DNA of 64,000 nt from Fibrobacteria bacterium (GCA_043745805.1 JAYTSD010000031.1:64001-128000), one strand, 5' to 3'. Counted from the first letter of the stretch, positions 17,793-57,382 are shown. A program made the numbers and translations. Notes: generated by a model from the letters alone, not told the origin.

Positions 17793-17868
<76 letters not shown>

Positions 17869-24287: not shown

Positions 24288-24290
24288 TGG

Positions 24291-25487
24291 CTAAGTCTCA
24301 TCTAGGGTTATGGCCGATCTGTTACCATTTGAATCAACGGTGGCTGTAATACGTGTTTTTGTGTTATCAATATCTTTTATGACAACTGTTGTAGTTGCTG
24401 CGCCAGATAATACACTTGCTAATGCGGATGCAAATAATCGCATATAACCAACGGCTGTATGGGCACCCTCGATTACATAAGCCCAAATAGCGGTTATTCC
24501 AGAGGCAGAAAGAGCATATCCAGTTTTATCATTATTCGTCGTTAAATTTGTGGCCGTGGTTACAAGCGGGATTGTGATATTTGTTAAAGTAGTTGCGCCC
24601 GTAGCGTTTTTAACATTATTGAAGTCTAAACCACCTTCACCTGTAGCCGAGACATCGAAAGTGTTAGCTGGGGTAGTGGATCGGACTAATTTAGCATTAC
24701 CGAAACTAGCATCATTCACAATTGTATAAGAATCACCCGTTTGAGTCGTTCCTATGACCCAATCAGCCAATTTTTTACCAATGCTTCCAGCGGTTGTCAG
24801 GTTTGCCGTCAACGCATCCCAAATAGCTTGTATCGCGGCGGCACTCAAGCCGTGGCCGGTTTTATCCGCAACGGTTACAGCATTAACCCCTAATTGCGCG
24901 AGAGAGGTGTTAACAACGGCGTTCGCAATATTTTTTATATTAACATCCAATATGCCGGCTGTTGCAGGTGTCGAAATTGCCGTTCCCAGTATTTTGCTTA
25001 TATCCCTACGTCCACTCGCATCAATCGAATCCAAATTCCAATTTGTGGGTGGAGCAATACCATTAACTCCGGTCATAAATGTAGCCGCCGATTGCACGTC
25101 CACGCGCGTCAATTCGATCTCGTAATCTTGGGTGAGCAAATTTGTTACACCGGATACGGTTACCACCAAAACCTTTGAGCTTGCCACGGAAAAACGCGCG
25201 TCTGCAAACTGAAATTCGTAGAGGCCCGGGTGGTTTGTACTATCCACTTCTTTAAAGCGGCACTTGGTGGCCGTAGGAGCGGCAAATGTTCCGAGCGTAG
25301 TAATGGTTTCAATAGTTGAACCTGCGGCCGCGTACACCGTAGGCGTCACCTCATTATCAGCAATTGTTGAAATAATTAAGCCAGTACTGTTAAAAGCTCC
25401 ACCCGTAACCCCTTGGCCGGTCGTGGAGTTCTTCAGCGCAAATCTGATGACGTTGCTTGTATTCGCAAATTTTATCAACTTTGACAT
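24291..25487 (-). CDS. Thr/Ala-rich putative fibre or structural protein
   Basis: Beta-rich N-terminus, repeated DKTG(H/Y).LSA..I.AIW motif, position in the tail module. Confidence 0.6.
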   Translation of the reverse strand: MSKLIKFANTSNVIRFALKNSTTGQGVTGGAFNSTGLIISTIADNEVTPTVYAAAGSTIETITTLGTFAAPTATKCRFKEVDSTNHPGLYEFQFADARFSVASSKVLVVTVSGVTNLLTQDYEIELTRVDVQSAATFMTGVNGIAPPTNWNLDSIDASGRRDISKILGTAISTPATAGILDVNIKNIANAVVNTSLAQLGVNAVTVADKTGHGLSAAAIQAIWDALTANLTTAGSIGKKLADWVIGTTQTGDSYTIVNDASFGNAKLVRSTTPANTFDVSATGEGGLDFNNVKNATGATTLTNITIPLVTTATNLTTNNDKTGYALSASGITAIWAYVIEGAHTAVGYMRLFASALASVLSGAATTTVVIKDIDNTKTRITATVDSNGNRSAITLDET

Positions 25488-26593
25488 TAGTTACACATCC
25501 CCCCGCGCATGTTACCCAATGCAAAAGCACCAGATGGCGCTGTTATATCACCAAAAATTATTTCTAAAGGCACGCGTCTTGTTGCATCATCGGTCCACGC
25601 ACCAGCATCGGTGCGAGTGGACAGTGTGCAAAGTTCCATACCATCGAGAGCCAACTCTTCGCTCGACGAATTAAAATCCATTGTTAATACGGCCCAGTTG
25701 GACACCGTATTCTGTGCCTGAAACCCGATCCGGAAATCCCCGCCAGCACTTAAAATAGATAGCGTGGCTTCGGTGAAAAAAATCTCAAAACTTCTGTGCA
25801 GCGAGCTTACTTGTGTATTTAGGTCAGAGGGCAGGGTAATCGTTTGTAAAACAGTGGTTCCGGTATAAAGCTGAACTTTGATGGTTTTACCAGAGGCAGC
25901 AGTTCTGCCAAACCACCTAACCCCACGAATCGTATTCGAATTCCACCACGTAGCAGGGAAATTAAATTTCGCGGCATACTCATCAGGGGTTGAGTCCGAG
26001 CTATACTGAGTCTGAGTAGTAGATTTTAAAGGGAATCCGTAAACTTGACCGGCACTAGCATAACCGTAAACCGGAGAATTTTCAATTTTTGTTCTTACAC
26101 CTGCATTGTTTTGGATAACATACGGAATGGTAACGCGTTGATTTAGTTGAGATATATCCGTTGCAAAAGTTGAAGAGTTTCCGGCAGCAATCGTTCCCGA
26201 GCTATAATCAATTACAATTGATAATAGCTCTCCACGAGTACAGGTATACGCATTGGCAAGGGTTATCCATTGCCAAGTCCCATCCCACGATGTATCGGCG
26301 GGCGGCGTAAAGGTTTGTGATGCTGGTGTACCACCACCCTTTACAGTTCCATCCGAAAACCCATTTCCTACGCCGACATCTACCCCTTGAAAACTGATTC
26401 TGTATGTTGGAGGCGTTCCGGCTCGGACGCCATACGTAAAACCGAGTTTTGTAATTGTGGCGGCCTCTTTGGCTTGGATTATCCATTCAATTTTATCGGT
26501 CGTGGCATCTAAAATAAAAGTGCTAAGAGCGGCGTTATTTGTAACCGACGCAGGAAATCCGAGATTAAGTCTGAGCGACTTTGCATCAGACAT
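25487..26593 (-). CDS. Beta-rich putative receptor-binding or structural protein
   Basis: Thr/Ser/Gly-rich, two apparent beta-sandwich halves; coupled to neighbouring genes. Confidence 0.55.
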   Translation of the reverse strand: MSDAKSLRLNLGFPASVTNNAALSTFILDATTDKIEWIIQAKEAATITKLGFTYGVRAGTPPTYRISFQGVDVGVGNGFSDGTVKGGGTPASQTFTPPADTSWDGTWQWITLANAYTCTRGELLSIVIDYSSGTIAAGNSSTFATDISQLNQRVTIPYVIQNNAGVRTKIENSPVYGYASAGQVYGFPLKSTTQTQYSSDSTPDEYAAKFNFPATWWNSNTIRGVRWFGRTAASGKTIKVQLYTGTTVLQTITLPSDLNTQVSSLHRSFEIFFTEATLSILSAGGDFRIGFQAQNTVSNWAVLTMDFNSSSEELALDGMELCTLSTRTDAGAWTDDATRRVPLEIIFGDITAPSGAFALGNMRGGMCN

Positions 26594-26879: not shown

Positions 26880-27190
26880 TATTTTTTTTCCTTGATTAAA
26901 TATTTTTTTACATCCTCAAATATTACCTTATGGTAACCATCTATCTCTAAATGATAGCGCCAATGGCTGTGTATTAAATGCCAATCAAAACGCATTCCAT
27001 CGAGTTCTTTTTTTGCCTTTGTTGGGCTAATGTCCGTAATGTATAAGCATCCGGATTTTAATTTTTCTATCTCGAAAGTAGGTTTGTATTTTGTCCCACC
27101 TTCTTCGATTTTCCCGAAACCATAATCGAGAAAAACCTCTACAAAAGCACCGCTAGGCCGGCCATTTATCAACCTTCTTAGGATATTCAA
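26879..27190 (-). CDS. Phage hypothetical protein
   Basis: 103-aa ORF overlapping both neighbours. Confidence 0.55.
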   Translation of the reverse strand: MNILRRLINGRPSGAFVEVFLDYGFGKIEEGGTKYKPTFEIEKLKSGCLYITDISPTKAKKELDGMRFDWHLIHSHWRYHLEIDGYHKVIFEDVKKYLIKEKK

Positions 27191-27696
27191 TTTATACCAC
27201 CAGGGTTATAAATCGTCCGCATTTGGAGGCTTCTAATAAAAGCTGTATCGCCTGCATTGGTTCCCGCTGCTGATTTAATAATCAGCCTCAAAGAGTCGCA
27301 ATTCATGGCCCGCCCTTGATAGATTCCTGGCAAGGTGTCCCTTAAGGTAGTAGCAGATTTAGTAATCAAAAAATCAGTAGTCCTTTGATACTGACCCGTA
27401 TCAGCCCATGCGTTTATTCGCTTGTCATAGCACAAAAACCTTACAGAGAATTGGCCGGAATCATCGCCATTACTACCATGGGTCCAAGACATAATAAACT
27501 CACTGTTACCCTGTCCAAAAGGGAAGGCTTTAGAGGTGTCAGCCGTACCGACGGATTTATAAGTGGGCACAGCGTAACCCGTAGTGTCAACATATATTGT
27601 AGCGCCTTTAAGCCCCCACTTAAGCTTGCCGTAACTATTCCTTATCTGTGCTTGGCCGCATACTGCCAGCGTTAAGATTAAAATTAAAAATTTCAT
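27187..27696 (-). CDS. Signal-peptide-bearing phage protein, beta-rich
   Basis: MKFLILILTLAVCGQA|Q signal peptide; seven D-S/T dipeptides. Confidence 0.7.
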   Translation of the reverse strand: MKFLILILTLAVCGQAQIRNSYGKLKWGLKGATIYVDTTGYAVPTYKSVGTADTSKAFPFGQGNSEFIMSWTHGSNGDDSGQFSVRFLCYDKRINAWADTGQYQRTTDFLITKSATTLRDTLPGIYQGRAMNCDSLRLIIKSAAGTNAGDTAFIRSLQMRTIYNPGGIN

Positions 27697-28034
27697 TGTT
27701 TGTCTTCTCCTAATTGATGTTTTATGTCAGCCATTCCGAACATTCGATCTCGAATAAGCTTTTTTTTGTGCAATCTCTTGGCGACTTCTTCGGCACCATA
27801 AAACTCCACGATTACTAATTTTATAGTGTCTAGCTCTGCTTGGGTTTTTGTATGATAACCCAATACAACACTATCCACATGATGGGTGATTATAGAATCG
27901 TGCGCAGCCATGCTTTTTTCCATGGATTTTTTAGCAAGCCAGCCTGTTATATCTTGGCTAAAGGTGAGTAGACTTGCGCCACTTATACCTAAGGCAGAGA
28001 GAATCATAATTATGGCTTTTAAATCGAGTTTCAT
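27693..28034 (-). CDS. N-terminally membrane-anchored helical protein (spanin-like or holin-associated?)
   Basis: Hydrophobic N-terminal segment then helical region; DSI/DSV/DTI motifs. Confidence 0.55.
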   Translation of the reverse strand: MKLDLKAIIMILSALGISGASLLTFSQDITGWLAKKSMEKSMAAHDSIITHHVDSVVLGYHTKTQAELDTIKLVIVEFYGAEEVAKRLHKKKLIRDRMFGMADIKHQLGEDKQ

Positions 28035-30097
28035 TGTTCTTGCTCCTGATTTGCGTAACCACGCAAAAGTTTTTTTCTAAAATCTGGGACGCTGAGTTTA
28101 TTAAGCAAAGTTGTGGATTGAGACGGGGAATTTAATCCCATCGTAGGTGGTTTAAATGGCCCTTCTGCGGCGTTGCGGAGTGGATTACTTATATCGAATC
28201 CGATGGCCCTTGCCTTTTCTTTTATTGGTCCTAACACCGTATTATCGAGAATATTGTTTCCAATTTCCTTAACACCTTCTCGAATAGCATTTGATGCGCC
28301 TGTGCCGGATGTTGACATAACAGCATTTCCAAATTTATCACCAAGGTTCACGAGGTTTTTTAAATTATCTAGCTCCGTAGGTTCAAACAAAACTGAGGCT
28401 ACTGTTTTTTTGTTTTCCATGGAATTTTTTAAGCGCTTGAAAGTAAAATCATCACCCTTTAACATTTCATTTAAAAATGTTCCCTTGAGTGTATTTAGTT
28501 GCTCCGGAGACAAATAATCTTTTAAAGCCGTAATTCTTTTTGTATCACCGTGATCAATAATGGATTTAAAAATCGCTTCATCACTTGTTCCCTCTTGGCC
28601 AATTTTTCCGAGCAAAGATTTATCGCCGAATATTTTGTGCATCGCCTTATTACTCTCAACAAGCGAAGCGGCTTTTTCAATTCCGAAACTATTTTCAACA
28701 GTTCCGATCATCGCTTGCGAAATGTCACCATATAATTTTCTAAAGCGAGAAATGTCCGGCGTAATATCTGCCAAAGTATTTTTAGACTTAAAGGCTACAT
28801 CTCCAATATCCTGCAAAGCCTCATAGGATCCGGCGTAAGTTTGGCCCTTGCGCTTAAATACGTCAATTGCATTTAGTATTTGATTACCCTGCTCTTTTGC
28901 TGTTTTGGTTAAACCGTTTTCGGATTTTGCTTTCGCCCACGCTTCCAAATCCTGTAACTTAGGCGTTATCTTTTGCAATTGTTGCGGGTCCATCATTAAG
29001 TCGGGAACCTGTGCGATTATATCTTTATGCGTAGTATTGATAGCATCAAAAGCACGGTCCACGCCTTCGTTAAACCCTTCACGCAAAACGCTACCGGCGT
29101 CTTGGACGGTAACAGGTGCGCTACCACCAATTTTTTCTATGTCCCTGTGAATCGCCTTGCGAACTTGATCCAATCCTTCAGCATGCTTGTCTAGTAGCTC
29201 CTGACCAGCTAACCCTTCGGCTTGTACTCTAGCAGTGCGCGTGGCCATATGGTTTTTGCCAAATTCAACGGCTTCAGGTAATAGTTTTGGATCGATTCCG
29301 TTTTCTAGTGCAGTTTTAACGGAATGCGTAAAGTCATCCGCTTGCTTTGGATTGAACGCGCTCGTGATTCCTTGTCTTGCACTTTCAAATGCGTCTCCAG
29401 TAGTTTTAATTAAAGATTTTGTGGCGTTTATTGAACCTGTTGCAGCCTTTGTACCAGTAAGCAAATCAGCGCCACGAGCTAAACCCTCAACACCTTCACC
29501 AGCCATTTTTGCAATCGGCTTTGCAGTATTACCGAGCATTTTTAATTCGGACATTCCAGGAATAGGCACAGCCAATTCACCTATAGCCCCAACTGTTCCG
29601 GATGCAGTAGGATCAAAAAATCCACCTTTTTTAAGCTGAATTCCTTTTCCAGTTTCATTATAAAGACTAGGTGCAACATCGCTTAATGCTGTTGATGGCA
29701 CACCATATCCCTCAGCAATCTTTCCCGCTGTTGGTGATTTATCTGGATCGGCGCCAAAATTTTTTATTGCCGTTCCTAAAAATGTTCCAACATCTTTGTA
29801 TTCATTTGGATCAGTAAATTTTGATAATCCCTCTGCTCGTCCACCTCTGTCTATTCTGTTTTGCTGTACTTGCCCAAGCCCTGCTCGAATAGGCGCAGTT
29901 GTTACCCTATCTAATTGGCGACCAACAAAAGCGAGTGGTGGGAGTACAATATTTGCTGCGGTAGAACCTATTTTATCTAAAAGGCTTAGATCATCTTGTG
30001 CAGCTGGATCGATAGCGGGCGAAGCGGAATATTTTTTCCATGGTCCATCATCGGTTACGGTACCGGTGGATGCATACTTTTCCCATGGCTTGGCCAT
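28031..30097 (-). CDS. Putative internal virion (ejection) protein
   Basis: 688 aa, helical, repeated PW.KY at the N-terminus, placed after the tail genes as in podoviruses. Confidence 0.65.
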   Translation of the reverse strand: MAKPWEKYASTGTVTDDGPWKKYSASPAIDPAAQDDLSLLDKIGSTAANIVLPPLAFVGRQLDRVTTAPIRAGLGQVQQNRIDRGGRAEGLSKFTDPNEYKDVGTFLGTAIKNFGADPDKSPTAGKIAEGYGVPSTALSDVAPSLYNETGKGIQLKKGGFFDPTASGTVGAIGELAVPIPGMSELKMLGNTAKPIAKMAGEGVEGLARGADLLTGTKAATGSINATKSLIKTTGDAFESARQGITSAFNPKQADDFTHSVKTALENGIDPKLLPEAVEFGKNHMATRTARVQAEGLAGQELLDKHAEGLDQVRKAIHRDIEKIGGSAPVTVQDAGSVLREGFNEGVDRAFDAINTTHKDIIAQVPDLMMDPQQLQKITPKLQDLEAWAKAKSENGLTKTAKEQGNQILNAIDVFKRKGQTYAGSYEALQDIGDVAFKSKNTLADITPDISRFRKLYGDISQAMIGTVENSFGIEKAASLVESNKAMHKIFGDKSLLGKIGQEGTSDEAIFKSIIDHGDTKRITALKDYLSPEQLNTLKGTFLNEMLKGDDFTFKRLKNSMENKKTVASVLFEPTELDNLKNLVNLGDKFGNAVMSTSGTGASNAIREGVKEIGNNILDNTVLGPIKEKARAIGFDISNPLRNAAEGPFKPPTMGLNSPSQSTTLLNKLSVPDFRKKLLRGYANQEQEQ

Positions 30098-31365
30098 TAT
30101 ACTTTTTCCCAGTTTTTAGGGTCTTTTGGATCGCCGCCTTTAAATTTGTAACCACCTTCTACGGTTCCAGCCGATGGCGCGGCGGGAGCTTTTTGACTTG
30201 ATGAATCTGTTTTCGGAGTACGGCCATATAAAGAATCAATATCGGCGTTACCTCTATCGATAGATCCTTGCATGCTATTTATTTTTGCATTCACCTTATC
30301 AACAAATTTATCTAGGTTTCTTCCTATAAACTCTCCGCTGCCACTCCAATTACCGACTTGATATTTTAATTCTGAGGCGAGTCTTTCAGCTTCATCATTA
30401 GACAAGGCATCGGGGCCTAGCGAGCTATTCATGGCCTTTAACATTCCGAGGCCATAGGATAAAGCAGCATCTTTAGTCTTTGCGTTTTTAAACTGCTCTA
30501 AGTCGCTTGAAATTGTGTTTTTCAAAGTTTTTTGAAATCCAATTGTGCCGGCAATTTTTTTTACTTGCTCCTGAGCCTCCATGGGCAAGGCGTTAAATTC
30601 GGCGTTCTTATCAACTTTTCCGGCAATGTCCGTAAGCTCGTAAGTGCCTTTCTTTGTATTTGTTTTGTAAACAGATCCGTCACCTCCATTAAAAAACGAA
30701 AACTGCCCATTGTCCATTGCTTTAGCTTGAGCGTTTGACGCTCCCACATTTGCTTTGGCCTGTAGCGGTTTAAACGCGCTTGCGGCCGTTTCATTTTGTG
30801 ACTGCGTGATTTTATCACCCTGCGTTTTCTCTGCTATGTTCGCTTCTACTCCCGATGTTCTCGCTTGTGCTTGTGTATGGGTAACATTAGCGTTACTGAT
30901 TGGAGTTTCATTTTGGGTTTTGGTTAATCTGCCAGCATAATCCGCTTTAGCCATTTCCGGAGTATATAGCGGATCATCGTTCAAAAGTGACATGGTATGA
31001 TAGTGTGCGTCGTTTAAACCTTGCGCTTGTGCGCCTGACGCCGAAATGCCGGTAGGCATTCCGCCTGCATCCATACCGAGGCTAGCTTTTCCCGTTTCGC
31101 CCATTGGCAATTGTGATGCGGGTTGAGAGTTCTTAAATGATTCTAAAAGCATTTGCTTTTTCAGATTCTTATCGAATGACAACTTAGATGTTTGATTCAC
31201 TAAATTCTTGGCCGCGTTATCTTTATTTACGCCCTCTGTGACCGCGGCAGATTGCAGTAAATCCGATTGGGTTTTACGATTATCTTGTATAGCCGTACCA
31301 ATGTCACCTAGGCCCAATAAGCTGCGCTGCAAGGCTTCCGCCATGCTTGGTCTATATTGTATCAT
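30097..31365 (-). CDS. Putative internal virion (ejection) protein
   Basis: Gln/Ala-rich; C-terminal GTVEGGYKFKGGDPKDPKNWEKV. Confidence 0.65.
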   Translation of the reverse strand: MIQYRPSMAEALQRSLLGLGDIGTAIQDNRKTQSDLLQSAAVTEGVNKDNAAKNLVNQTSKLSFDKNLKKQMLLESFKNSQPASQLPMGETGKASLGMDAGGMPTGISASGAQAQGLNDAHYHTMSLLNDDPLYTPEMAKADYAGRLTKTQNETPISNANVTHTQAQARTSGVEANIAEKTQGDKITQSQNETAASAFKPLQAKANVGASNAQAKAMDNGQFSFFNGGDGSVYKTNTKKGTYELTDIAGKVDKNAEFNALPMEAQEQVKKIAGTIGFQKTLKNTISSDLEQFKNAKTKDAALSYGLGMLKAMNSSLGPDALSNDEAERLASELKYQVGNWSGSGEFIGRNLDKFVDKVNAKINSMQGSIDRGNADIDSLYGRTPKTDSSSQKAPAAPSAGTVEGGYKFKGGDPKDPKNWEKV

Positions 31366-31739
31366 CGTATTCCTGTTTTCAATCCAGGGTATGGATTAGC
31401 AAGGTTTGCCCCAAAAGAATTTCCAGCGGGGTTATTCGAAGAAAATGCAGAACCAAGAAAATTTTTAAAAATGTTATAGCCATTCTCGGCGGTTTGATCC
31501 GTTCTGCCTTTTCTTTTTAGGCTGTCATTATTTAGTCTTTGCTCTTCAAGATTTAATTGATATGCTGGATCTTGTTCTTGAGCTTGCGCGTCAAGATAAC
31601 CTCCAACACCACCCAGTAACCCGCCTAATACCCCTCCGGCAGCCGTTCCATAAGGTCCAAATGCAGATCCGGCCTTTGCGCCACCGGTAGCGCCAGTGAT
31701 ACCCATAGATAATGATTCGGCCATTGTTCGCTTTTTCAT
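31362..31739 (-). CDS. Small glycine-zipper protein, putative ejection protein
   Basis: GATGGAKAGSAFGPYGTAAGGVLGGLLGG. Confidence 0.65.
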   Translation of the reverse strand: MKKRTMAESLSMGITGATGGAKAGSAFGPYGTAAGGVLGGLLGGVGGYLDAQAQEQDPAYQLNLEEQRLNNDSLKRKGRTDQTAENGYNIFKNFLGSAFSSNNPAGNSFGANLANPYPGLKTGIR

Positions 31740-34087
31740 CTTTTAGTCTCCAATGCTAACGCGGAATTAGCTCTATCATTTCCAACAAGATCGGTAAAGG
31801 CTTTTTTAGCTTCTTCTGGATCTAAACCATTAACTACCATGTTGTAATAATTGGCATAATCCATTCCGACTTGAGTGGCGCTATAAATATATCGTACACC
31901 TTCTTCTAACAATTGGCCACCAACCTTACTACGGTCATATAATCCCTTGTAAACTTTCTTTGGATCAAGACCATTATCCTCTGCGATCTTATTGAGGTGT
32001 TCCTCGGCATTTATCATCATGCCGCTCGCATGTCTATTGTCTTTCTGAGCTACGATTTTATTTGGATCAAGTTTATCTGCAATATTTTTTATCTCGATAC
32101 TATTGTCCTGAATAGTTTTCATTATATCAGGAGAGAGCGAGCTCTTCACCTGTCCAAGCGTGGTTTTGAAAGTTTTAACTTGAGTCGCATAGGTCTGTGT
32201 CCCGTCGTCTGTAATCTTGGCATTGATGTTATTCTTCGCTGCTGCTATTTGCTCAGGAGTATATTGCTTGCCACTTGGATCTTTTGCAGTGGCAGCCCAT
32301 GTTTCAAACGACGCGGGGTCTTTGAAGCTTGAGGCTTTCATGTTTAACGTGCCTTGTGCAACTTTATCAGCTGTCATCACCGGTGACCCGTCAGGATTCT
32401 TTAGGTTACCCAACCCTTTATAAAAATTCTCAGCTGCAAATTGAAGCATATCCGGATTATCGCCAGCCATTGCGGTAAGCGTTGCTGTGGTTTTTGCAAG
32501 GTTTTCGAATTCAGATGAGCCTTTTAACAAATCAAATTTTGCCTGATCTAATCCAAGAGTAGAGGCGAATTCACTTGCGTCCTGAGCCAGCTTTTGATAA
32601 GCCAGTTGTACATCTTGATCCTTAAAATCATATTTCTGCTGCAAGTCCGCGCTGAATTGCGTTGAATTTTGCGCGAGTTGCGCTTCGGCCAATGTTTTGG
32701 CTTGGGAAAGTTGTTTATCCTGTTGCTGTCCATCAAACCACTGCTGACTTGCTTGCATAGCGGTTTGTTGGTCATAACCCATACCAAGCAATTCTTTTTC
32801 GTAATCTTGCTTGGTAGTCGCCATAGCTTCCTCGTGAGAGTAACCCTTGTCAGTCATAAGCGAAGTAAAACTTTGCGCCATTTTTGTATTTAAGATTGTA
32901 TTGGCTTGTTCTTTTTCGAGCGTGTCGAGATTAAGTGTATGGTTTAAAGTCGCCATCGACGTATCGTGATCGTTTTTCATTTTCTCAAGCAATACATTTT
33001 GCTCATTTTGCGTGAGCTGTTGACCGGCTTCGAATTTTCTTTGAATGTCGTCTCGATTACCTTGCCAAATTCTTTGGGCCACGGCGTCATCGAGTCCAGC
33101 GGTTACGCGCCATTTTTCAAAATCTTGAGTCGAGTTGAACTGTTGAATTTGTGTCGCCATTTTTTTAGCGTCAATATCATACCCTTGATCCGCAATGTAT
33201 TTTTGCAATTCGCGTGATAAATTATTTTGTACTGAGGTCGCCGATATTTGTCTTTCGTTTTGCGTTGCTTGCCATGCTCTTTGGGCTTCGTCATTAGAAA
33301 AGCCTTTATCAGTGGCATATTTTTTAAACGACAATTCGTCCTGAAATTGACTGCCACTTTGGGCCAGCTCTTTTTCGCGCAAACTTAGATCTTTCAGCGC
33401 AAGCTCTTTTGTTTGAGCTAGTGCAGTGGAATTTTGCTCCCCTTGTTGACCGAGGCCCGCTAAGGTGGATAAGTTTTGGAAAGCATTTTGTTGTTTGGTT
33501 ATATTTTGTTGCTCTTCTTGGCCTTGTAATTGGCCTAAAAAGTTTTGTCTTGCGGGTATTAACTTCTGCGTTACATAGTCGCCTACATCGCCCCCAAGCT
33601 GTCCAGTGAAGGCATGTCCATTTAATGCCGATGATTCTTTTGCTTGGCGTAAAGCCTCGCCCTCGCCTTTGTTGTACTCGTTTAAAGCGAACATCGATGA
33701 CATAGATGGGTTTTGGTTACCCTGTAAATTTTGGCCTATTGCTTGGCTCGCTTGGCCTATCAATGGCTCTGCAAGCGGGTTTTCTTGCAATGCCTGACTA
33801 AATGTTTTAGGCTTTGCAGCCTGTGGATCTTGCGGGTTTTGTGGAGCGGGTCCATCGCCTGGATTAAATGCAGCTGAATTAAAACCGGCACTATCGCCAC
33901 CTGGAATCTTAAATGAACTTTGTGACGAAGCTGGTGCCACTTGGTTAGGCGTTTGGCTATTGGCTATATCACTAGGTGCGCCGCCTGAATTTTGAACCGC
34001 GCCGCTTAATTTGGCGCCAAATGATTGGTTGCCAAAGTAACTTGGGCTTTTAGGATCGCGCCATTGATATGTTCCGGTTGTAGCCAT
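31736..34087 (-). CDS. Gln-rich putative internal virion (ejection) protein
   Basis: 783 aa; low-complexity N-terminus, imperfect helical repeats (AQRAWQ / AQRIWQ). Confidence 0.6.
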   Translation of the reverse strand: MATTGTYQWRDPKSPSYFGNQSFGAKLSGAVQNSGGAPSDIANSQTPNQVAPASSQSSFKIPGGDSAGFNSAAFNPGDGPAPQNPQDPQAAKPKTFSQALQENPLAEPLIGQASQAIGQNLQGNQNPSMSSMFALNEYNKGEGEALRQAKESSALNGHAFTGQLGGDVGDYVTQKLIPARQNFLGQLQGQEEQQNITKQQNAFQNLSTLAGLGQQGEQNSTALAQTKELALKDLSLREKELAQSGSQFQDELSFKKYATDKGFSNDEAQRAWQATQNERQISATSVQNNLSRELQKYIADQGYDIDAKKMATQIQQFNSTQDFEKWRVTAGLDDAVAQRIWQGNRDDIQRKFEAGQQLTQNEQNVLLEKMKNDHDTSMATLNHTLNLDTLEKEQANTILNTKMAQSFTSLMTDKGYSHEEAMATTKQDYEKELLGMGYDQQTAMQASQQWFDGQQQDKQLSQAKTLAEAQLAQNSTQFSADLQQKYDFKDQDVQLAYQKLAQDASEFASTLGLDQAKFDLLKGSSEFENLAKTTATLTAMAGDNPDMLQFAAENFYKGLGNLKNPDGSPVMTADKVAQGTLNMKASSFKDPASFETWAATAKDPSGKQYTPEQIAAAKNNINAKITDDGTQTYATQVKTFKTTLGQVKSSLSPDIMKTIQDNSIEIKNIADKLDPNKIVAQKDNRHASGMMINAEEHLNKIAEDNGLDPKKVYKGLYDRSKVGGQLLEEGVRYIYSATQVGMDYANYYNMVVNGLDPEEAKKAFTDLVGNDRANSALALETKR

Positions 34088-34368
34088 TATTCCATCCTCA
34101 GGGTAACAATTGCATTCTTGTCGCTAAATTGTAGAGTTACCCGTCGCAAATCTTTCACAGCAATTCCATTCGCATTTATTTTTATCCAACATTGCATATT
34201 TTTCCCTTCGGATGCCACAATAAAAACTTGCTTTGGTATGCGTGCAAGCTCGTGAGAAATGATTACATCGGTTCCGGCAGTTTCTTTTACGAATCGACGC
34301 AAGAGAGCGAAGCGCTTATCATCATCGAGATAAACCTGATCAAGTTTTAATTCTCCGGTTGGGATCAC
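34087..34368 (-). CDS. Small tail-associated protein
   Basis: 93 aa, coupled on both sides within the tail module. Confidence 0.55.
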   Translation of the reverse strand: MIPTGELKLDQVYLDDDKRFALLRRFVKETAGTDVIISHELARIPKQVFIVASEGKNMQCWIKINANGIAVKDLRRVTLQFSDKNAIVTLRME

Positions 34369-35897
34369 TGCATAAACTCCAATTCGAACCTAACCGGTGT
34401 GCCTTTAGTTCCGCTTGTTGTGAATCCAGTAGAACTATTGCTTTTATAAAAAGTTATAGTACTCGTGTTATATGAGGCCTTTATATCCGATGAAGGACCA
34501 ATAGTTGCCGAATTGTCGGTTAGGCTTGGTATTGAAAAATGTACGGTTCCAGGAGATAGTGTGGATGGAACTCCGGTATATGTAAATGTGTTAGCGTTGC
34601 TTGTTGCCGAAAGAATTGGAATATCTATGGTAACATGATTTCCAATCCTAAAAAATACGCTAACTGCCGTAGGAGCCGATGTGCATCCGGTAATAGTTGC
34701 CGTCCACGTCCCTTTATCAATGTATGTTTCATACTGCCATGTGTTTCCAATACTCTTTACTGAGATATTGGAATTATTCGCATTTCCGATTAGTGTAGGT
34801 GTAGACCAATCAGTTCCAGATCCGGAAGTTATTGAAATAGTATTCAAAGTAAAATCTGTTTTATGTATATCATAAACTCGTCCCACGCAGCTTGAGGCTA
34901 GCGGTAAAGTAATCGTAAAACTTCCGCTTGTAGCATCAGCGTTTATTGTATGGTGGGTAGCGTCTAGCGTTGTGTTTCCTGTAAGGGTGGTGACTACGTT
35001 GGCAACGGAAGTATTAAGTGTTACGCCGCTGGTTGCGGAAACGGTTAATTGTGTTGAGCCGTTAGTTTGAATTTGTAAATCCCGATAGGTTCCCGTACCT
35101 TGCTTATCAACAGTTAATTGCCCAGCCGTTCCGGTATGTTGTATAAAGCATCTTTCAGTATTTGCCACACTTGGATCGCCCACACCAAAAGAAACCAATG
35201 CACCCCCCGAAGCTGCAACATTTAAATTCTTTACATTCAAACCCCACGATACCACGTCCGTAGCGCCATTGACATTTGATCTCGTTGCCGCCGCCACTCC
35301 AAGTATAGGGGTAACAAATATAGGACTCGTAGCGCGAACATGGCTACCGCTTCCCGTTTCCGTATTAACTGATAAGTTACCTGATCCATCTGTTATGACC
35401 GTCCTAGAAGCGGTTAAAGGTGTAGCAATCGTACCCGTGAGCGCTGGACTCGAAATAGTTGGCGTTGCGATTGTCGGGCTAGTTGATTTTACATAACTAC
35501 CAGATCCCGTTTGTGCAACAGTTGTTAAAGCTTTTCCAGCCGTAAGCTCCATAGTCTGCGAAGCTGTTCCGGAACTAAAAACAGGGGCAGTTGTGAAAGT
35601 ATCCACACCCGCAAACTTTGCGGTTCCGGTAACCAAAGTGTTACCTGATATAGTAGGGTTTGATATAGTTGGTGTTGTAATCGATGGGCTTACCGACCGC
35701 GAAAGCACACCTGTTCCGGTGGCCGCGTTTACCGTGTCGTTAATATTATTTACGCCCCATTTTAAAGCAGAGTCATTTTTGTCAACATACCGCACCTTTG
35801 GAATGGCCGCGGTATCGACGATATAGGGAAGGCTCACATTTGTGAGCGCAAAGGATTTTAAAGCAAAAAGTGATAGGAGTAAGAATATTTTTTTCAT
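34365..35897 (-). CDS. Putative tail fibre with an N-terminal signal peptide
   Basis: MKKIFLLLSLFALKSFA| followed by TG(T/S)G..V...SP...TP shaft repeats, a DATSGSFTITLP motif and a distal G.W.ATI...F.RIGN.V head; directly after the nozzle gene. Confidence 0.7.
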   Translation of the reverse strand: MKKIFLLLSLFALKSFALTNVSLPYIVDTAAIPKVRYVDKNDSALKWGVNNINDTVNAATGTGVLSRSVSPSITTPTISNPTISGNTLVTGTAKFAGVDTFTTAPVFSSGTASQTMELTAGKALTTVAQTGSGSYVKSTSPTIATPTISSPALTGTIATPLTASRTVITDGSGNLSVNTETGSGSHVRATSPIFVTPILGVAAATRSNVNGATDVVSWGLNVKNLNVAASGGALVSFGVGDPSVANTERCFIQHTGTAGQLTVDKQGTGTYRDLQIQTNGSTQLTVSATSGVTLNTSVANVVTTLTGNTTLDATHHTINADATSGSFTITLPLASSCVGRVYDIHKTDFTLNTISITSGSGTDWSTPTLIGNANNSNISVKSIGNTWQYETYIDKGTWTATITGCTSAPTAVSVFFRIGNHVTIDIPILSATSNANTFTYTGVPSTLSPGTVHFSIPSLTDNSATIGPSSDIKASYNTSTITFYKSNSSTGFTTSGTKGTPVRFELEFMQ

Positions 35898-37876
35898 CGT
35901 TTCCCAAAGATTCTGGAAACCGTTTGCCGAAAATGCATAACGAGTCCAATAAATGTGAATGTTGCGCTTGCGTTATTTACTTGTAATTTGAATTGGAAAA
36001 ATATTGCGTTTATTCCGCGCGGAATCGCTATCGATCCGCCGAGTGAAGTGTTAGCAAACCAAGTTTTATCCCAAAGTTTATCCCATGATCGAGGCACGAA
36101 TGTTGGTGAAATAGCGGCCAAACTTGTTCCGGTCGATACCGCTCCATAATCGCCATCGATGCGAGGATTTACTGATCCATCGGTGATAAATAAAAGTTCA
36201 ATTATGGAAATGGTTTTAACGTACTCAGGAGAGTTTTGTAATATTGGACCGCTCCAAATATTCGTATCTATTGTAGTTTGAACTCCTCCCACATGGTCGT
36301 AAGCTCCCGCTCCCGCTTGCAGGATGCGGTAATTTTGATTGTCGAATACGATAACTTTTCTGTCGCGGGTATAAAGCATATAACCAAAGCCAACGCCAGT
36401 AAAAATCGTAAACTTGGCCGTGGAAGAGACGTCGGGGTTATATGGCTGAAAGGTGGATAGGTCGAGAGTTAAAAGCGTATCACCACAAAGTTTTCCGGAA
36501 TCCTGTCGAGTCGCGATATATAAAACTTGATCGCAAACTGTTAGAACGATATTTGAATCGCCTTGATTTCCATTGTAACCTAGTTCGCCGCCGCCTAGAA
36601 AAATTGCATTCACATTCATGGAAATCATTATCGGTGCACCAGTTGGCCCTAGGAATTCGAGGCCGCGAAGAGATACGAAGAAAGCCCATCGGCCCCATGT
36701 TGCGAACGCTTCTTGATTTCTCACACCCACATCGGGAGAGATTGGCTGTAATTGATTCTTAGGATCTGATTGAGGCAATAAATAGCAGGAATCAAGCTGG
36801 CTTAAAAAAGCATCCGTTCCGCTTTCCTGTCCTGATTTGTTACCTATGCCTTTAACACATGTTAAGTCACCTTTTCCGGGTAGTTTAATGCGGTAACTCG
36901 TAGTATTTGGATAATATTCGCATTCATATTTATTAGTGGCAATAATCGAAAACCATGCTGTTTTTGAAGCATCTGGATCCGTTGCATCAATGATAAAACC
37001 GAAAATAACCCGCTTTCCGGAAGAGGTAACGAATTTTGCAGTAGGAGCGGCACCATTACGGCCGCTATCGTCAATTATTTGACCAGTTAAAGCCGCATCG
37101 CTAACATTTGACTGATATGTTACTGTTAACCTTCCGGCTACTGTTGCCTCGAGGTAATAAGGAAAGCCCAATCCACTGAATGAGCGATAAACCTCATAGG
37201 CATTCACTCTCAAATCGGAAGAAGCAGTCCATCCGAAATTAGTTTTTTGATTTGCTGGCGTTGCTGTAACAATTGTAGACCAATCACCACGAACAACGGT
37301 AACGCCTCCAACTTGAATACACGGGACGATAACCCATTGCCATGTTCCGCTTTGCCCAGTGGCCGTAAAAGACGAAAAAGCAAAATTTGTTACCGGTGCT
37401 GGCGCTCCAAAAACTCTCCAAGCCGAATCATCGGCTCTTTGTGGCAAATCAGCGCCATTGGTAGCGATGCATGCTCCCATAAAAGTCTCAAAACGAATAG
37501 TTTTATTGACTGTTAATCCCGTAACACGCGCCGTATCTATTCCAGTAGTCTTATCTAACTCTTGAATAGTGCCATTTGCATGGGCATGCAAGAGCCTAGC
37601 ACTACCACCTGAGTCCACATATTCATGAGCGAGAGAAAATGCGCCCATGGCCGTGTAATCGGTAGTAAGGTTATTATTCGAGCTAAGCAAAAACCCAACA
37701 AACGCATTGCGGCGGTTTAGCGTTCCGCTTTGATAATCCATGTTATCAAGCTTTTGAGCGAAACCGTTTTTTATTTCCAAAAACGTATTCATGATGTCAA
37801 TACCCAAGGGCATTTTATACCACGGCCCACTACGTGGATCTGGAAAGCGCCTAAGTGAAGAGAGTGGCACAGGCAT
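35894..37876 (-). CDS. Putative tail nozzle (tubular B / P22 gp10-like) protein
   Basis: 660 aa, beta-rich; N-terminal LDNMD..SGTL.RR, DVG......FF.S.RG; follows the adaptor gene. Confidence 0.65.
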   Translation of the reverse strand: MPVPLSSLRRFPDPRSGPWYKMPLGIDIMNTFLEIKNGFAQKLDNMDYQSGTLNRRNAFVGFLLSSNNNLTTDYTAMGAFSLAHEYVDSGGSARLLHAHANGTIQELDKTTGIDTARVTGLTVNKTIRFETFMGACIATNGADLPQRADDSAWRVFGAPAPVTNFAFSSFTATGQSGTWQWVIVPCIQVGGVTVVRGDWSTIVTATPANQKTNFGWTASSDLRVNAYEVYRSFSGLGFPYYLEATVAGRLTVTYQSNVSDAALTGQIIDDSGRNGAAPTAKFVTSSGKRVIFGFIIDATDPDASKTAWFSIIATNKYECEYYPNTTSYRIKLPGKGDLTCVKGIGNKSGQESGTDAFLSQLDSCYLLPQSDPKNQLQPISPDVGVRNQEAFATWGRWAFFVSLRGLEFLGPTGAPIMISMNVNAIFLGGGELGYNGNQGDSNIVLTVCDQVLYIATRQDSGKLCGDTLLTLDLSTFQPYNPDVSSTAKFTIFTGVGFGYMLYTRDRKVIVFDNQNYRILQAGAGAYDHVGGVQTTIDTNIWSGPILQNSPEYVKTISIIELLFITDGSVNPRIDGDYGAVSTGTSLAAISPTFVPRSWDKLWDKTWFANTSLGGSIAIPRGINAIFFQFKLQVNNASATFTFIGLVMHFRQTVSRIFGKR

Positions 37877-38544
37877 TATAAAGTTTCACCTGCAAACGAT
37901 TGATAAAGTGGTTGACCAAACACATCTTGTGGCGTTCTATTGTCCGGCCTTGTTGATCCGCGTCTAACAGCCAGCCATAAAGCGGCTTTCCATTCTTCCG
38001 CTTGCGACTTATAGTTTGCTGCCATAGCCTGCAACTCAGGCGTATTGAATACGGCCAAGAATGATGCATAAGCCATGATGCAGCGCTTTAAATCGTCATC
38101 AGATGGCCATGCAGCTAAGTCCGCGATTACAGTAACTTTTTTTCTATAAGTGAGGTAAAGCGTTGCCGTACCCGGATTAGTCGCGAACATTAGAACAGGG
38201 GTTCCGGTACTTCTGTTTATATAAACTTCATAGCGCCTATTGTATGGCCCATCTTTAACAAGAGCATCAACGTCGAAAGTGTCGCTTGCATAGTATTTCG
38301 TGAGCCTTCTCTCAACTGGCTTACCTTCGAAATCGCTTGGAAGAGAATAAGGTCCAAGACTCCCATCAATAGCGGAAATTGTTGTTTGTCCTAAAACAAA
38401 ATTCCAATCCTTATCCTTTACCAACCAACTAGCAGCGCCAACGACTTTACGCTCTAAATATCCGCCTGCTACGGTATCATAAGACTGAATCTCGCGAAGA
38501 TCATCCGCAAGATCCGTCTTAAGCTGAGTGGTGTCGAGTGCCAT
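37876..38544 (-). CDS. Putative head-tail adaptor (tubular A-like)
   Basis: DWNF, YSLPSDF and L.LTYRK motifs; position. Confidence 0.7.
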   Translation of the reverse strand: MALDTTQLKTDLADDLREIQSYDTVAGGYLERKVVGAASWLVKDKDWNFVLGQTTISAIDGSLGPYSLPSDFEGKPVERRLTKYYASDTFDVDALVKDGPYNRRYEVYINRSTGTPVLMFATNPGTATLYLTYRKKVTVIADLAAWPSDDDLKRCIMAYASFLAVFNTPELQAMAANYKSQAEEWKAALWLAVRRGSTRPDNRTPQDVFGQPLYQSFAGETL

Positions 38545-39053
38545 TATGGTTTAGGTGGCTTTGTATTTGTAGATAGTTGTGCAACTTGCATACGTAATTC
38601 TTCGATCTCGTCATGCTGTTTGCGATTTTCTTCAATAAGCTCTTGATTCTTAAGCTCACTGGTTTTTGCTTCGGCATCGAGTTCACGATTTTCGTATAAA
38701 CAAATACGGTTTTCCGGATGTTGCGACAAAAGCAAAAGGCGAATACATTCCTTTTCGTCTCTTGGGCAATAACCTTCCTTGGGAATCTCGTACATATCCG
38801 AAGGTGTTTCACGGTTAAATCCGGTCACACTAAATTCGGAATAACCAGGCCAAAGAATGCCACGAATACCACCGGAATAAAACTGCTTACGGTTTGGAAC
38901 GAATTTAATGAAGTCCGTCTTTGGATCGCGACCAAATTCCTTTTTCCAGCCAGCAAGCTTCCTTTTGTTCTCCGGAGAAAAATCAAGCGTGTTACCGTAA
39001 CTCAAAGTAGTACCGAGCGTAATTAATTCTGCATGTTTTTGTGGATTAAACAT
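38544..39053 (-). CDS. Phage hypothetical protein
   Basis: 169 aa with a C-terminal coiled coil. Confidence 0.6.
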   Translation of the reverse strand: MFNPQKHAELITLGTTLSYGNTLDFSPENKRKLAGWKKEFGRDPKTDFIKFVPNRKQFYSGGIRGILWPGYSEFSVTGFNRETPSDMYEIPKEGYCPRDEKECIRLLLLSQHPENRICLYENRELDAEAKTSELKNQELIEENRKQHDEIEELRMQVAQLSTNTKPPKP

Positions 39054-39302
39054 TTAAGCCTCGACTTTTTCTTGTGGAAGAATTGCTTTGAGTCGTTCTA
39101 TTTCCGCTTCGTGAAAAGCGATTTGTGAGGGGATTTCTGCGTGTTCATAATTCACGTCGGTGATGTGCATGAGAGGATTTTTTACATAACCTTCGAGTTC
39201 TTTCTCGTCGGATCTGTTGTCAGGCGTAAAGCCTTCCGGCTTAATGGTAAACTTGCCGATTATGGTAGTTTTGCCTTTGTGTGTTGGATAAAATGTTTTC
39301 AT
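39054..39302 (-). CDS. Phage hypothetical protein
   Basis: 82 aa, RBS aaggt. Confidence 0.6.
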   Translation of the reverse strand: MKTFYPTHKGKTTIIGKFTIKPEGFTPDNRSDEKELEGYVKNPLMHITDVNYEHAEIPSQIAFHEAEIERLKAILPQEKVEA

Positions 39303-39313
39303 GTTACCTTTCT

Positions 39314-39339
39314 AAAAAACCCCTAGGTTACCCTAGGGG
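39314..39339 (-). terminator. Intrinsic terminator after the capsid gene pair
   Basis: Minus strand cccctagg-gtaa-cctagggg followed by six T. Confidence 0.85.
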
Positions 39340-39362
39340 AGAGTGTTTTTGTTACTAATCGA

Positions 39363-39950
39363 TTACCGAGCAAATCCCTTGCGCGTATAGGTTATCCTAC
39401 ACCTTGGGATATTCTTCGCAATTGCCCCATTGTTAACAAGTCGCCATCGAATAAACCTATGGTCGATTGTTTTCAGTGGAGGACGTAGCACAGTGGTTAC
39501 CACTAGGTTAACATCCGAGGCTTTTGTGATTGTGACATTATTAACCGAATCCCATGCAGTACTACCAGCACGCAATGGATTTAACCCATCGGACGCAACT
39601 AGCGATTGCTGAGTGGTAAGGCTCACTATAACCGAATCGGTTACGGCTGCCGAATCGGTTACGTCATAGCATGACAAAACAACATTCCCGATTTTCGTGG
39701 TGTCAACAAGTGGTTTACCCACTGAATCGCCAACGAGCAAAGGAATCTTGAACATATCAAATGCCTGAGTGTAAATAGTGTCACCGATTGCCATTTGTGC
39801 ATCGAGCACAAAGTAAGCGAACCCGCCGGTACCATATTCGTAAGAAGACGTTACCGTAACAGGTGCGTTTTGTGGCGTGGTGCCATTAAAATAAGTGGCA
39901 CCCATAACCAACGAAGATAGAAGAAGGATAAATCCAAGTAATTTTTTCAT
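39363..39950 (-). CDS. Signal-peptide-bearing protein in the capsid-decoration position
   Basis: MKKLLGFILLLSSLVMG|A, beta-rich body, six D-(S/T)-(A/I/V/T) motifs; 10 bp after the capsid stop with RBS gaggt. Confidence 0.75.
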   Translation of the reverse strand: MKKLLGFILLLSSLVMGATYFNGTTPQNAPVTVTSSYEYGTGGFAYFVLDAQMAIGDTIYTQAFDMFKIPLLVGDSVGKPLVDTTKIGNVVLSCYDVTDSAAVTDSVIVSLTTQQSLVASDGLNPLRAGSTAWDSVNNVTITKASDVNLVVTTVLRPPLKTIDHRFIRWRLVNNGAIAKNIPRCRITYTRKGFAR

Positions 39951-39960
39951 TATCGACCTC

Positions 39961-41208
39961 TTACTTTCTGATATTGGTTAACAAGGTGACTGCTTTAGGA
40001 TCAGAGCATAAAAGCCCTTCTACCACGTACATGGCCGCTCTATCTACCCAATCGGTTCCCAATATTTTCATGTCGGTATCTTCTTGCAAATCCATGTTTT
40101 GTAAGTACATGCGAGTTAACAAGTCGGGTTGAAAACCAATAGCTTGGCCGCGACGAGCTTGCTTGTTCATAAATTCCGAAGGAATTAAATGAACCGTACC
40201 GCTCGGTACTTCCAAGTCAATGATTTTTTGACGATAGGCTTCTTTTTGCTCTGTGATGCGCGTTTGCTTTTGAGCATAAGAGGTAAACGTGGTCATAACG
40301 TCATTGCCGCAAAGCATATAAACGTCCATTCCCGCGCCGCCTTGGCGACACGCAGGAACAAGGCCACGGGAGAAATCATCCCACGCTAAAGTGCCGTCTT
40401 GTGAGTTGTTATTATAGACGGAACCCGCCCACCATTCCAAACCACCGGCAATAAGAGCACGAGTAGATCCACTGCCAATAGTTGCCTTTTGGCCTGCAAT
40501 CATCCCGCCTTCACGCATACGATTTAAATCCACGTTCTTACGAGCCATTTCTTTTTCGTAATCGGAATTTGGTTTTTCGCCGCCTGCAAACAATTGCACG
40601 TTCTTTTGTAATGGTCCTTGGGCCATCCATTGGATCATGAATTGCAAGTTATTGATGCGGTTAATTGGTTCGCGGTTTGTGCCATTCGCAGCCGAAGGAC
40701 CGTCACCGTTTGCATTACCAATTTTTTCGAAATACTTAATGGATGAATCAGAAGTCATCGCCACGGTTCCACCGGCACTTAAATAAGTACACAGGGCGGT
40801 TACCTGTGTTTGCGAGTCAATGGAAACAACTCTGAATTGAGTGGTTTGATCCACTTTGTTCAGCATGTCATTAGCTTGAATACCAGAGGTATCATCCAAT
40901 AACAAAACAGAATTCGATCCTTGTGTCGTGTTCACGTTCGCTGTTAAGCGAAATTCAGTTGGCGCAACTTCGAAATCGTATAGTTCCGGTGTAAGGGTCC
41001 AAGATTTTTCGGACTTAATGCGAGCTTTCGCATCCGTTATTTTCCCGTCGTTCATGACGGCTTTTCCACCTAAGAGAGTTAGAAATGGGAACATATCATA
41101 ACTGATTAAGTTCCCCTCCAAGACTTGGCGCACTTGACGTGCGTCCGATCTTCCGGCCAGCTTTCTGGCATTTTCCAACGTCCCTGCGGTCGCTGTAACA
41201 TCAGACAT
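39961..41208 (-). CDS. Major capsid protein (HK97 fold inferred, with an inserted beta domain)
   Basis: 415 aa after the scaffold; PFLTLLG, N..Q.M, RE..MI.G, AGGL.W, GTV.LIP, EGLL; RBS aaggag. Confidence 0.8.
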   Translation of the reverse strand: MSDVTATAGTLENARKLAGRSDARQVRQVLEGNLISYDMFPFLTLLGGKAVMNDGKITDAKARIKSEKSWTLTPELYDFEVAPTEFRLTANVNTTQGSNSVLLLDDTSGIQANDMLNKVDQTTQFRVVSIDSQTQVTALCTYLSAGGTVAMTSDSSIKYFEKIGNANGDGPSAANGTNREPINRINNLQFMIQWMAQGPLQKNVQLFAGGEKPNSDYEKEMARKNVDLNRMREGGMIAGQKATIGSGSTRALIAGGLEWWAGSVYNNNSQDGTLAWDDFSRGLVPACRQGGAGMDVYMLCGNDVMTTFTSYAQKQTRITEQKEAYRQKIIDLEVPSGTVHLIPSEFMNKQARRGQAIGFQPDLLTRMYLQNMDLQEDTDMKILGTDWVDRAAMYVVEGLLCSDPKAVTLLTNIRK

Positions 41209-42292: not shown

Positions 42293-42664
42293 CTAATCTG
42301 GAAAAGCTGGCACATCCCAAGGGTCTTGATCCAAGTCCTCTGGTCTATGTGTTTCGCTTTTCTCTTTTGGTTTAAGTTTGTTAATGGTTTTTAAAGCCTT
42401 AATAGGCATCTCAATGAGCAGGGTTAGCGCCTTTATTTCGCTGGATATACCAACACATGCCAGACCGTAACTTCCAAGTTCATCTTGAGAACGTGGACGC
42501 GGTATTTTTTCGAGTAAGCGTCTACGATCATCCCGAAGAGAAATGAGAAAACGGAAATACTCCGGCTTTTCACTGAGAGCTTTTGATAATACCTGTAAAT
42601 CCTCAGGAGTTATACTTTCGCTAAGCGGCTTGTAAGGCTGCTTGCGGAATAGGTTGTTGAACAC
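42293..42664 (-). CDS. Phage hypothetical protein between portal and scaffold
   Basis: 123-aa helical ORF in a slot common in podoviruses. Confidence 0.55.
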   Translation of the reverse strand: MFNNLFRKQPYKPLSESITPEDLQVLSKALSEKPEYFRFLISLRDDRRRLLEKIPRPRSQDELGSYGLACVGISSEIKALTLLIEMPIKALKTINKLKPKEKSETHRPEDLDQDPWDVPAFPD

Positions 42665-56140: not shown

Positions 56141-56193
56141 TGTATCTTTTTCTCGGCCAGCCAAAGCCACCCATAACGAGAGGTAACTTTCTT

Positions 56194-57324: not shown

Positions 57325-57337
57325 TATGAGACTCTGC

Positions 57338-57382
57338 CTCTTAATCAGCGGGTCGAAGGTTCAATCCCTTCAGTACCCACCA
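57338..57382 (+). repeat. Right att core (displaced 3' part of tRNA-Lys)
   Basis: Identical to 17824-17868; no tRNA 5' half upstream. Confidence 0.96.

Follow-up and report, generated by a model that had tools for sequence, protein, structure and literature searches.

A prophage of a Fibrobacterota-like genome with predicted export leaders and an excess of a candidate O-glycosylation motif on proteins of its particle-gene block

Textbook accounts have tailed-phage particles assembled wholly in the cytoplasm, and the known glycosylation of virions, that of mycobacteriophages, is carried out by cytoplasmic phage enzymes. Phage envelope proteins with host export signals, such as T5 Llp, the lambda-type Cor and T4 Sp, block receptors or superinfection; these small products appear early in infection or during lysogeny, have no homology with structural proteins and hold no fixed place in head or tail operons. 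A different case is found in the short-tailed Cellulophaga phage phi18:3 (Pachyviridae), where three adjacent genes, gp085, gp086 and gp087 (record KC821620, positions 32891-38583), encode fibre-like proteins with Sec-type leaders, for example ...ISGVSA with QTV after the cut and ...IGLNA likewise followed by QTV. The record notes for all three 'structural protein; annotation based on experimental MS/MS proteomics analysis' (MS/MS, tandem mass spectrometry), the homologues in phi46:3 and phi19:3 also bear leaders, and the leader with the first ~60 amino acids (aa) is common to Cellulophaga proteins with different distal parts, including pectate-lyase fibres. Here we describe a prophage in a 64,000-nucleotide stretch of the genome of a Fibrobacteria bacterium from sediment (GCA_043745805.1, JAYTSD010000031.1:64001-128000; the window, to which coordinates refer unless another record is named) in which several proteins of the particle-gene block, judging from their sequences, very probably mature outside the cytoplasm.

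An earlier note on this DNA had proposed that the phage exports and glycosylates outer parts of its virion. The N-termini and coordinates on which it drew hold good: the 195-aa protein at 39363-39950 (minus strand, as are all the late genes discussed below) begins with the leader MKKLLGFILLLSSLVMG, cut before A; the 510-aa fibre-like protein at 34365-35897 with MKKIFLLLSLFALKSFA, cut before L; and the 169-aa protein at 27187-27696 with MKFLILILTLAVCGQA, cut before Q. The adjoining 113-aa protein (27693-28034) has a single hydrophobic stretch, at residues about 7-25, predicted to be its only membrane anchor and N-terminal. Leaders were called by a crude custom script, whose cut sites are unreliable, together with inspection by eye, looking for the layout expected of Sec substrates of signal peptidase I (SPI): a positive n-region, an h-region of about 8-12 hydrophobic residues and small residues at -3 and -1. 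All 43 rows of the three family alignments show it, with Lys or Arg at positions 2-3, and because the leaders are kept throughout (28/28, 4/4 and 11/11 rows) the proteins look exported, a conclusion we regard as very likely to be right.

The second property of these proteins is their content of the motif D-[ST]-[AILVMT], here called the sequon, for which the expectation was taken from 2000 shuffles of each protein. A recount agreed exactly with the numbers given before: 6 in the 195-aa protein, 3 in the fibre, 4 in the 169-aa protein and 3 in the 113-aa protein, with none in the capsid protein (1.59 expected) and 4 in the portal. The claim that the exported proteins are dense in the motif stands for the 195-aa protein (1.05 expected, P=0.001), the 169-aa protein (0.70, P=0.002) and the 113-aa protein (0.45, P=0.009; all three sequons lie past the anchor), and fails for the fibre as a whole (2.71, P=0.53). 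Pooled over the late module, the five leader- or anchor-bearing proteins have 16 sequons against 5.3 expected (a ratio of 3.0) and the 23 leaderless proteins 18 against 23.4 (0.77). An excess is thus confined to the proteins with a leader or anchor, the leaderless ones lying at or below expectation, and this includes the beta-rich leaderless proteins used as controls (2 vs 2.52 for one of 398 aa, 1 vs 1.74 for one of 368 aa, and 3 vs 2.57 for one of 660 aa).

The 195-aa protein is a candidate for a decoration-type protein, and its gene lies directly behind that of the major capsid protein (39961-41208; SU10 type, PF17236, E=1.8e-13). This gene starts 10 nt past the capsid stop and is preceded by GAGG; since that element is present and the leader is conserved as the start of the open reading frame, the start codon appears to be real. 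The terminator which the earlier note had assigned to the two genes in common is present, 24 nt past the stop of the 195-aa gene: an intrinsic-terminator-like hairpin (39314-39339; stem reading 39339-39320 on the minus strand, 8 bp with 6 GC pairs and a loop of 4) followed by TTTTTT. No other hairpin across the scanned 19.5 kb is as strong, and it is the only strong terminator there. A word-based homologue search with this protein returned no match, but a two-row profile drew 29 proteins from 1.84 billion, all from metagenome assemblies. In the resulting 28-row alignment the leader and a sequon at D105 (columns 105-107) are each present in 28/28 rows; Met1 and Asp105, the latter part of that sequon, are the family's only invariant residues, and Cys94 and Cys184 are kept in 25/28. 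Pooled over the family the ratio of observed to expected sequons (O/E) is 3.43 (119 vs 34.7), a figure that overstates the independence of rows that are related to each other, while mirror and neighbour control motifs give 0.77-1.27; taken singly, 17/28 members are enriched at P<=0.05.

An AlphaFold2 model of the 195-aa protein from the 28-row alignment (mean predicted local distance difference test, pLDDT, 86.2; predicted template-modelling score, pTM, 0.81) opens with a helix that corresponds to the leader, continues as an extended segment and then forms a beta jelly roll; a 2-row alignment had given an unusable model (pLDDT 41.8). Foldseek returned generic sugar-binding or jelly-roll matches with template-modelling (TM) scores of 0.3-0.4, and a full fold search placed PirA (Z 9.8) and the N-terminal domain of XepA from the Bacillus subtilis prophage PBSX (PDB 6i56; Z 9.7, root-mean-square deviation (rmsd) 2.9, 106 residues aligned) jointly at the top, followed by the cement protein Bbp16 of Bordetella phage BPP-1 (PDB 3j4u chain H; Z 7.7, rmsd 3.4, 112 aligned), whose Z lies inside the tool's background of 7-8. 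Neither a profile of the family against PDB sequences (nothing below E=0.6) nor Pfam on all 28 members gave anything meaningful, and Bbp16 (PF21190) in particular was not matched at E<=10 in that scan; of the Atlas clusters to which any Pfam family is assigned, the nearest has Bbp16 in 21% of its members, at a score of 0.81 that lies below the 0.9 line and serves as a lead only. The fold is compatible with a decoration protein while identifying none. Prediction of a complex between the capsid protein (for which the alignment had only 3 rows) and the mature jelly roll (28 rows) gave no answer (score 0.00 in two runs) and speaks neither for nor against binding. What the gene does have is the genomic layout of a decoration protein, small, beside the capsid gene and apparently co-expressed with it, with the 10-nt gap and the shared terminator just described.

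That layout recurs in relatives. Among 60 related genomes the capsid protein has one relative of the same family, in genome G017 (42% identity), the only contig matched in scans of the genome contigs, and the gene after this capsid gene encodes a 194-aa leader-bearing jelly-roll homologue (32% identity, E=4e-17); the jelly-roll family was found in only 2 of the 296 genomes searched in the phylum. The metagenome scans yielded one contig, L006 (15.8 kb, 56% GC), which is collinear with the window: a Pal-like lipoprotein, a small gene, terminase (37% identity), portal (32%), scaffold (26%), capsid (36%), leader-bearing jelly roll (32%), the adaptor-position gene (35%), the nozzle-position gene (37%), a leader-bearing fibre, a small gene and an internal protein. 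A leader-bearing jelly-roll gene thus follows the capsid gene in 3/3 related elements, and the collinearity of L006 means that the exported proteins hold fixed places at about one-third identity. Scans of IMG/VR with the capsid, the capsid alignment, the jelly-roll and 169-aa alignments and the fibre N-module gave no match.

The leader-bearing fibre (34365-35897) is made up of the leader, a conserved N-terminal module of about 45 aa that holds all 3 sequons (residues 28, 43 and 54), fibre repeats and a conserved C-terminal domain. No curated fibre family recognised it in Pfam or NCBIfam, and the sole family match is a weak one to phrog_11091, 'Hoc-like head decoration' (E=0.0027). Among the 22 homologues retrieved out of 33 non-self matches, 13 start with a hydrophobic leader by eye; in the alignment of the N-module the leader is present in 11/11 rows, with a sequon at reference D54 in 10/11 and at D28 in 8/11. 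Five full-length homologues (P0035, P0044, P0051, P0055 and P0057) share the fibre repeats and C-terminal domain with the window's protein and are leaderless, with unrelated hydrophilic N-termini. Compared with its counterpart on L006 the fibre is best kept over its N-terminal 60 residues (48% identity, against 34% over the last 110), and the middle cannot be aligned. This is the pattern of a modular fibre, in which a conserved N-terminal docking module is joined to exchangeable distal parts. In a sister metagenome run (X3), at the level of contigs, a variant of the phage appears to diverge from the window at 34367 and 35492, with flanks about 95-99% alike; the interval is the distal three-quarters of the fibre gene, and a variant differing there would suit, weakly, a role in host recognition.

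The 169-aa protein has three full-length homologues at 54-57% identity. In the four-row family the leader is present in 4/4, with the predicted cut between Ala and a conserved Gln, sequons stand at D120, D134 and D150 in 4/4, a Cys pair is kept in 4/4, and the pooled sequon O/E is 5.4 (18 vs 3.4). Hhalign of the 195-aa family against this one aligned the leaders alone, so a common origin is not shown, and in the Atlas both are nearest to the same viral clusters (scores 0.91 and 0.94), which again is a lead only. The conserved Cys pairs of both families fit folding in the periplasm, an oxidising compartment.

Whether the sequon is used depends on the host, which belongs to the Fibrobacterota, the sister phylum of Bacteroidota. 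The earlier note took D-(S/T)-x for the Bacteroidota sequon of O-glycosylation; the motif is the right one, but the genome is Fibrobacterota-like and not Bacteroidota, and glycosylation in that phylum has been deduced only from enrichment of the motif. When 3109 long host open reading frames were sorted by the crude leader script, sequon O/E was 2.05 in SPI-like proteins (n=709), 3.25 in lipoprotein-like proteins (n=101), 1.55 in membrane proteins (n=726) and 1.18 in cytoplasmic proteins (n=1573), with five control motifs at 0.76-1.15 in the SPI-like, lipoprotein-like and cytoplasmic classes; since the script over-calls leaders, the contrast would be diluted by it, not created. Host envelope genes to the left of the prophage, which had been said to be rich in the motif, are so (12588-15881, 10 vs 2.15; 15689-17464, whose product is Omp85/BamA-like, 5 vs 1.20). 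The excess in the phage proteins parallels that in the host's own exported proteins and is specific to this motif. According to the parts of a 2025 review available to us, general O-glycosylation is limited to non-cytoplasmic proteins, engineered motifs become glycosylated, and Fibrobacterota show 'a similar enrichment' of the motif, enrichment being all that is reported there for that phylum (PMC12871550). The host's own excess and that statement make it plausible that the motif is in use here, and the excess may be read as a sequence-level sign that Bacteroidota-type O-glycosylation extends to Fibrobacterota, as the review had suggested. Glycosylation of the 195-aa and 169-aa families is a reasonable inference; the word 'phage' has 0 occurrences in the text of the review available to us, and phage proteins as substrates go unmentioned in it (PMC12871550).

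These observations can be assembled into a sequence of events, which we favour tentatively and would put at somewhat short of an even chance: the proteins would be exported and glycosylated by the host, and the jelly roll and fibre would join the virion at lysis as outer accessories. The host Sec machinery would carry the products across the inner membrane, where the leader is cut (before Gln in the 169-aa family); they would fold in the periplasm, where members of both the 195-aa and the 169-aa family would form a disulfide, and the general O-glycosylation system of the host would load a glycan at the conserved D-S/T-hydrophobic sites. The weakest step is the last, in which the jelly-roll protein and the fibre become outer accessories of the virion: the first, expressed from the capsid operon in amounts like those of the capsid, would decorate the head, and the second, docked through its conserved N-module, would form side or head fibres, both meeting the cytoplasm-built particle only when the two compartments are merged by holin lesions or lysis. 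The Pal-like lipoprotein and the pair of 113 and 169 aa would likewise be exported. Membership in the virion is suggested by where the genes lie, by the joint transcription of the jelly-roll and capsid genes, by the docking-module arrangement of the fibre and by what the Cellulophaga record states. Were they virion parts, the proteins could reach the particle only once the inner membrane had been breached; joining between holin action and rupture of the outer membrane is physically possible, though undocumented.

A number of points weigh against such an account. To our knowledge, tailed-phage assembly is cytoplasmic in every case studied, and full-text searches of the main papers yielded neither a report of Sec-exported or periplasm-matured parts of a tailed phage nor a precedent for joining at lysis. 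The phage has leaderless fibre candidates of its own, at 23901-26593, and therefore does not need an exported fibre. The sequon evidence is uneven: besides the fibre, which as a whole shows no excess, and the relatedness of the rows behind the pooled family figures, 11/28 of the 195-aa proteins show no enrichment of their own at P<=0.05; and in L006 the contrast is absent, the jelly roll having 3 against 1.27 (P=0.11), the scaffold 4 against 0.95 and the capsid 3 against 1.14. The invariant D-S-V could be structural, because in the model it opens a beta strand. The leader-bearing phi18:3 proteins are poor in sequons (1 vs 3.7, 1 vs 3.2 and 1 vs 2.8), the opposite trend, so that export and glycosylation need not go together. 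Finally, the transferase of the general O-glycosylation system is still unidentified according to the available text (PMC12871550), and that this host uses the motif, plausible as it is, is unproven.

The principal competing explanation grants export and probable glycosylation but holds that the proteins form no part of the virion and work late in infection, in the cell envelope, whether by masking receptors against loss of progeny on debris, blocking superinfection, helping to breach the outer layers or to time their breach, or coating vesicles, all of which are possible. All the export and sequon evidence applies to it equally, and the topological problem vanishes; we consider it a serious possibility, if a rather doubtful one. 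The proteins hold fixed places in the head and tail blocks of relatives only 32-42% identical, which is unusual for accessory cargo, and the jelly-roll gene sits within the transcription unit of the capsid. The leaderless fibre candidates would be available for the particle, but the leader-bearing fibre has the conserved N-terminus and swapped distal parts of fibres docked to particles, and fibre-like proteins with leaders were, according to the record, detected by MS/MS in a particle preparation of a cultured phage. The closest structural matches to the jelly roll include XepA, an exported protein of the PBSX lytic cassette, yet its Z of 9.7 is barely above the stated background. The exported proteins at 46921-47388 and 27693-28034, with no obvious role in the virion, are the further items that suit action in the envelope.

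It is improbable, in our estimate, that the hydrophobic N-termini do not function in export and serve instead, perhaps, as membrane tethers or assembly handles on the cytoplasmic side, with the sequon excess arising as a by-product of beta strands. The motif does often open strands, as at D105 and D134 of the model, and the fibre is not enriched overall. Beta-rich leaderless proteins, however, stand at or below expectation, the mirror and neighbour motifs show no enrichment, the n-, h- and c-regions are complete in all 43 rows and small residues precede the cut, and the Cys pairs fit an oxidising compartment. Less probable still is the alternative offered in the earlier note, that structural genes of a decaying prophage have been turned to bacterial service as cell-surface fibres or adhesins: the leaderless homologues do show that the fibre descends from phage fibres, but the prophage looks intact (attachment sites, integrase, repressor, recombination, terminase, portal, scaffold and capsid genes, with the late genes open), synteny is strict in the late operon of this intact prophage and two distant relatives, the same arrangement stands on the phage-like metagenome contig of 56% GC, and the jelly-roll family is present in only 2 of the 296 genomes searched in the phylum.

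Among the exported products outside the pair of candidate accessories, the 113-aa and 169-aa genes are flanked by genes of the internal-virion type and fibre genes. The 113-aa protein has a weak match to phrog_12141 (E=0.0018). The 169-aa protein was considered as a lipoprotein and rejected, the leader Cys of the window's copy being absent from 3/3 homologues; for want of a conserved lipobox Cys the pair was also rejected as a two-component spanin, and no lysis families were found among its neighbours that would provide the holin and endolysin context of spanins. In the packaging block a Pal/OmpA-like lipoprotein with 0 sequons (46921-47388; PF00691, 2e-17; TIGR02802, 1.1e-19) is kept at the same place in L006 (1017-1496 of that contig; 29% identity, with a lipobox). 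Beside the repressor gene, at 50323-51132 (minus strand), lies a leader-bearing protein of 269 aa with 12 sequons against 1.66 expected (P<0.0005), 9 of them in a series of xDT(I/L/T/V)K units at residues about 137-205; its sequence has the look of a stalk with dense glycosylation, produced during lysogeny, and the family scans gave no match for it.

The window as a whole is part of the chromosome of a 3.95-Mb genome of 40% GC, and carries genes for DnaA, SMC, TypA and type IV pili. Across the genome the C-terminal sorting domain of the type IX secretion system is matched 58 times, 50 of them above the curated cut-off. Immediately after dnaA lies a transposase gene of the Mutator family (1220-2479, plus strand; PF00872, 6.6e-124). 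The prophage occupies 39.5 kb between 17.87 and 57.38 kb and is bounded by a direct repeat of at least 45 bp, one copy running from 17824 in the 3' part of tRNA-Lys(ctt) (17793-17868, plus strand, identified by ARAGORN), which forms attL, and the other at 57338-57382, the attR that follows the integrase gene at the right end (together 56140-57382, plus strand; PF00589, 5.6e-18). The late genes are all on the minus strand, tightly overlapping and all open, and their order is T7-like. Large terminase and an SU10-type portal are encoded at 42621-46303 (PF23899, 3.1e-9; phrog_332, 3.2e-10; phrog_2, 2.3e-10); by position alone there follow a likely scaffold, four large proteins and a glycine-zipper protein of internal-virion type, and, last, the leaderless fibre candidates. 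Gene order is also what places the 660-aa protein at the position of the T7 nozzle and the 222-aa protein at that of the adaptor (35894-38544); neither had a family match in the phrog or Pfam scans, both are kept in L006 (37% and 35% identity), and they are possible docking partners of the fibre N-module. Holin, endolysin and spanin families were recognised nowhere across the prophage in the family scans. A DUF5675 protein at 21405-21818 (plus strand; PF18925, 1.2e-25) is the sole candidate for a lysis enzyme that was noticed. The capsid, jelly-roll and fibre proteins had no tblastn match among 50,697 cultured-phage records. In our reading the named genes are genuine late genes, and the temperate, short-tailed phage to which they belong represents a new lineage.

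Should the tentative account given above be borne out, tailed phages would have a second, extracytoplasmic stage of assembly, and phages of a group that dominates guts, soils and sediments would carry a glycan made by the host. This would matter for predicting host range, for engineering phages of Bacteroidota and Fibrobacterota, and for understanding the purpose of general O-glycosylation itself. A further generalisation we consider rather unlikely as matters stand: tailed phages of Fibrobacterota and Bacteroidota would build in two compartments, with the DNA-filled head and tail core formed in the cytoplasm and a Sec-routed, disulfide-bonded, glycan-coated outer layer of head decoration and fibres that snaps on at lysis, and the released virion would wear the glycan of its host, perhaps as camouflage or as a ligand for glycan-binding surface proteins of the next host. 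The findings also give two practical rules, namely that leader-bearing genes in the structural modules of such phages are not to be dismissed as cargo, and that an excess of sequons is usable as a marker of export from sequence alone.

The described systems resemble the window in different respects. T5 Llp, Cor and Sp are like it in their host export signals. XepA, as a phage-encoded exported beta-sandwich protein, is like the 195-aa protein, from which it differs in having a Gram-positive host, a gene by the holin and endolysin genes and not the capsid gene, and no sequence similarity; according to the available part of its description it is a cytotoxic, pentameric dumbbell with a second domain (PMC6834076). 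Bbp16 is a small jelly roll like the 195-aa protein, and it, too, is encoded next to its capsid gene. The general O-glycosylation of Bacteroidota shares with the window the motif and its restriction to proteins with a leader or anchor, and differs in the host, for whose phylum the available text gives enrichment of the motif only (PMC12871550). Phage phi18:3 is virulent, infects a member of the Bacteroidota and gave no tblastn match to the capsid, jelly-roll and fibre proteins described here; what the two have in common is the combination of a short-tailed phage, a host of the FCB (Fibrobacteres-Chlorobi-Bacteroidetes) group and fibre-like proteins that begin with Sec-type leaders.

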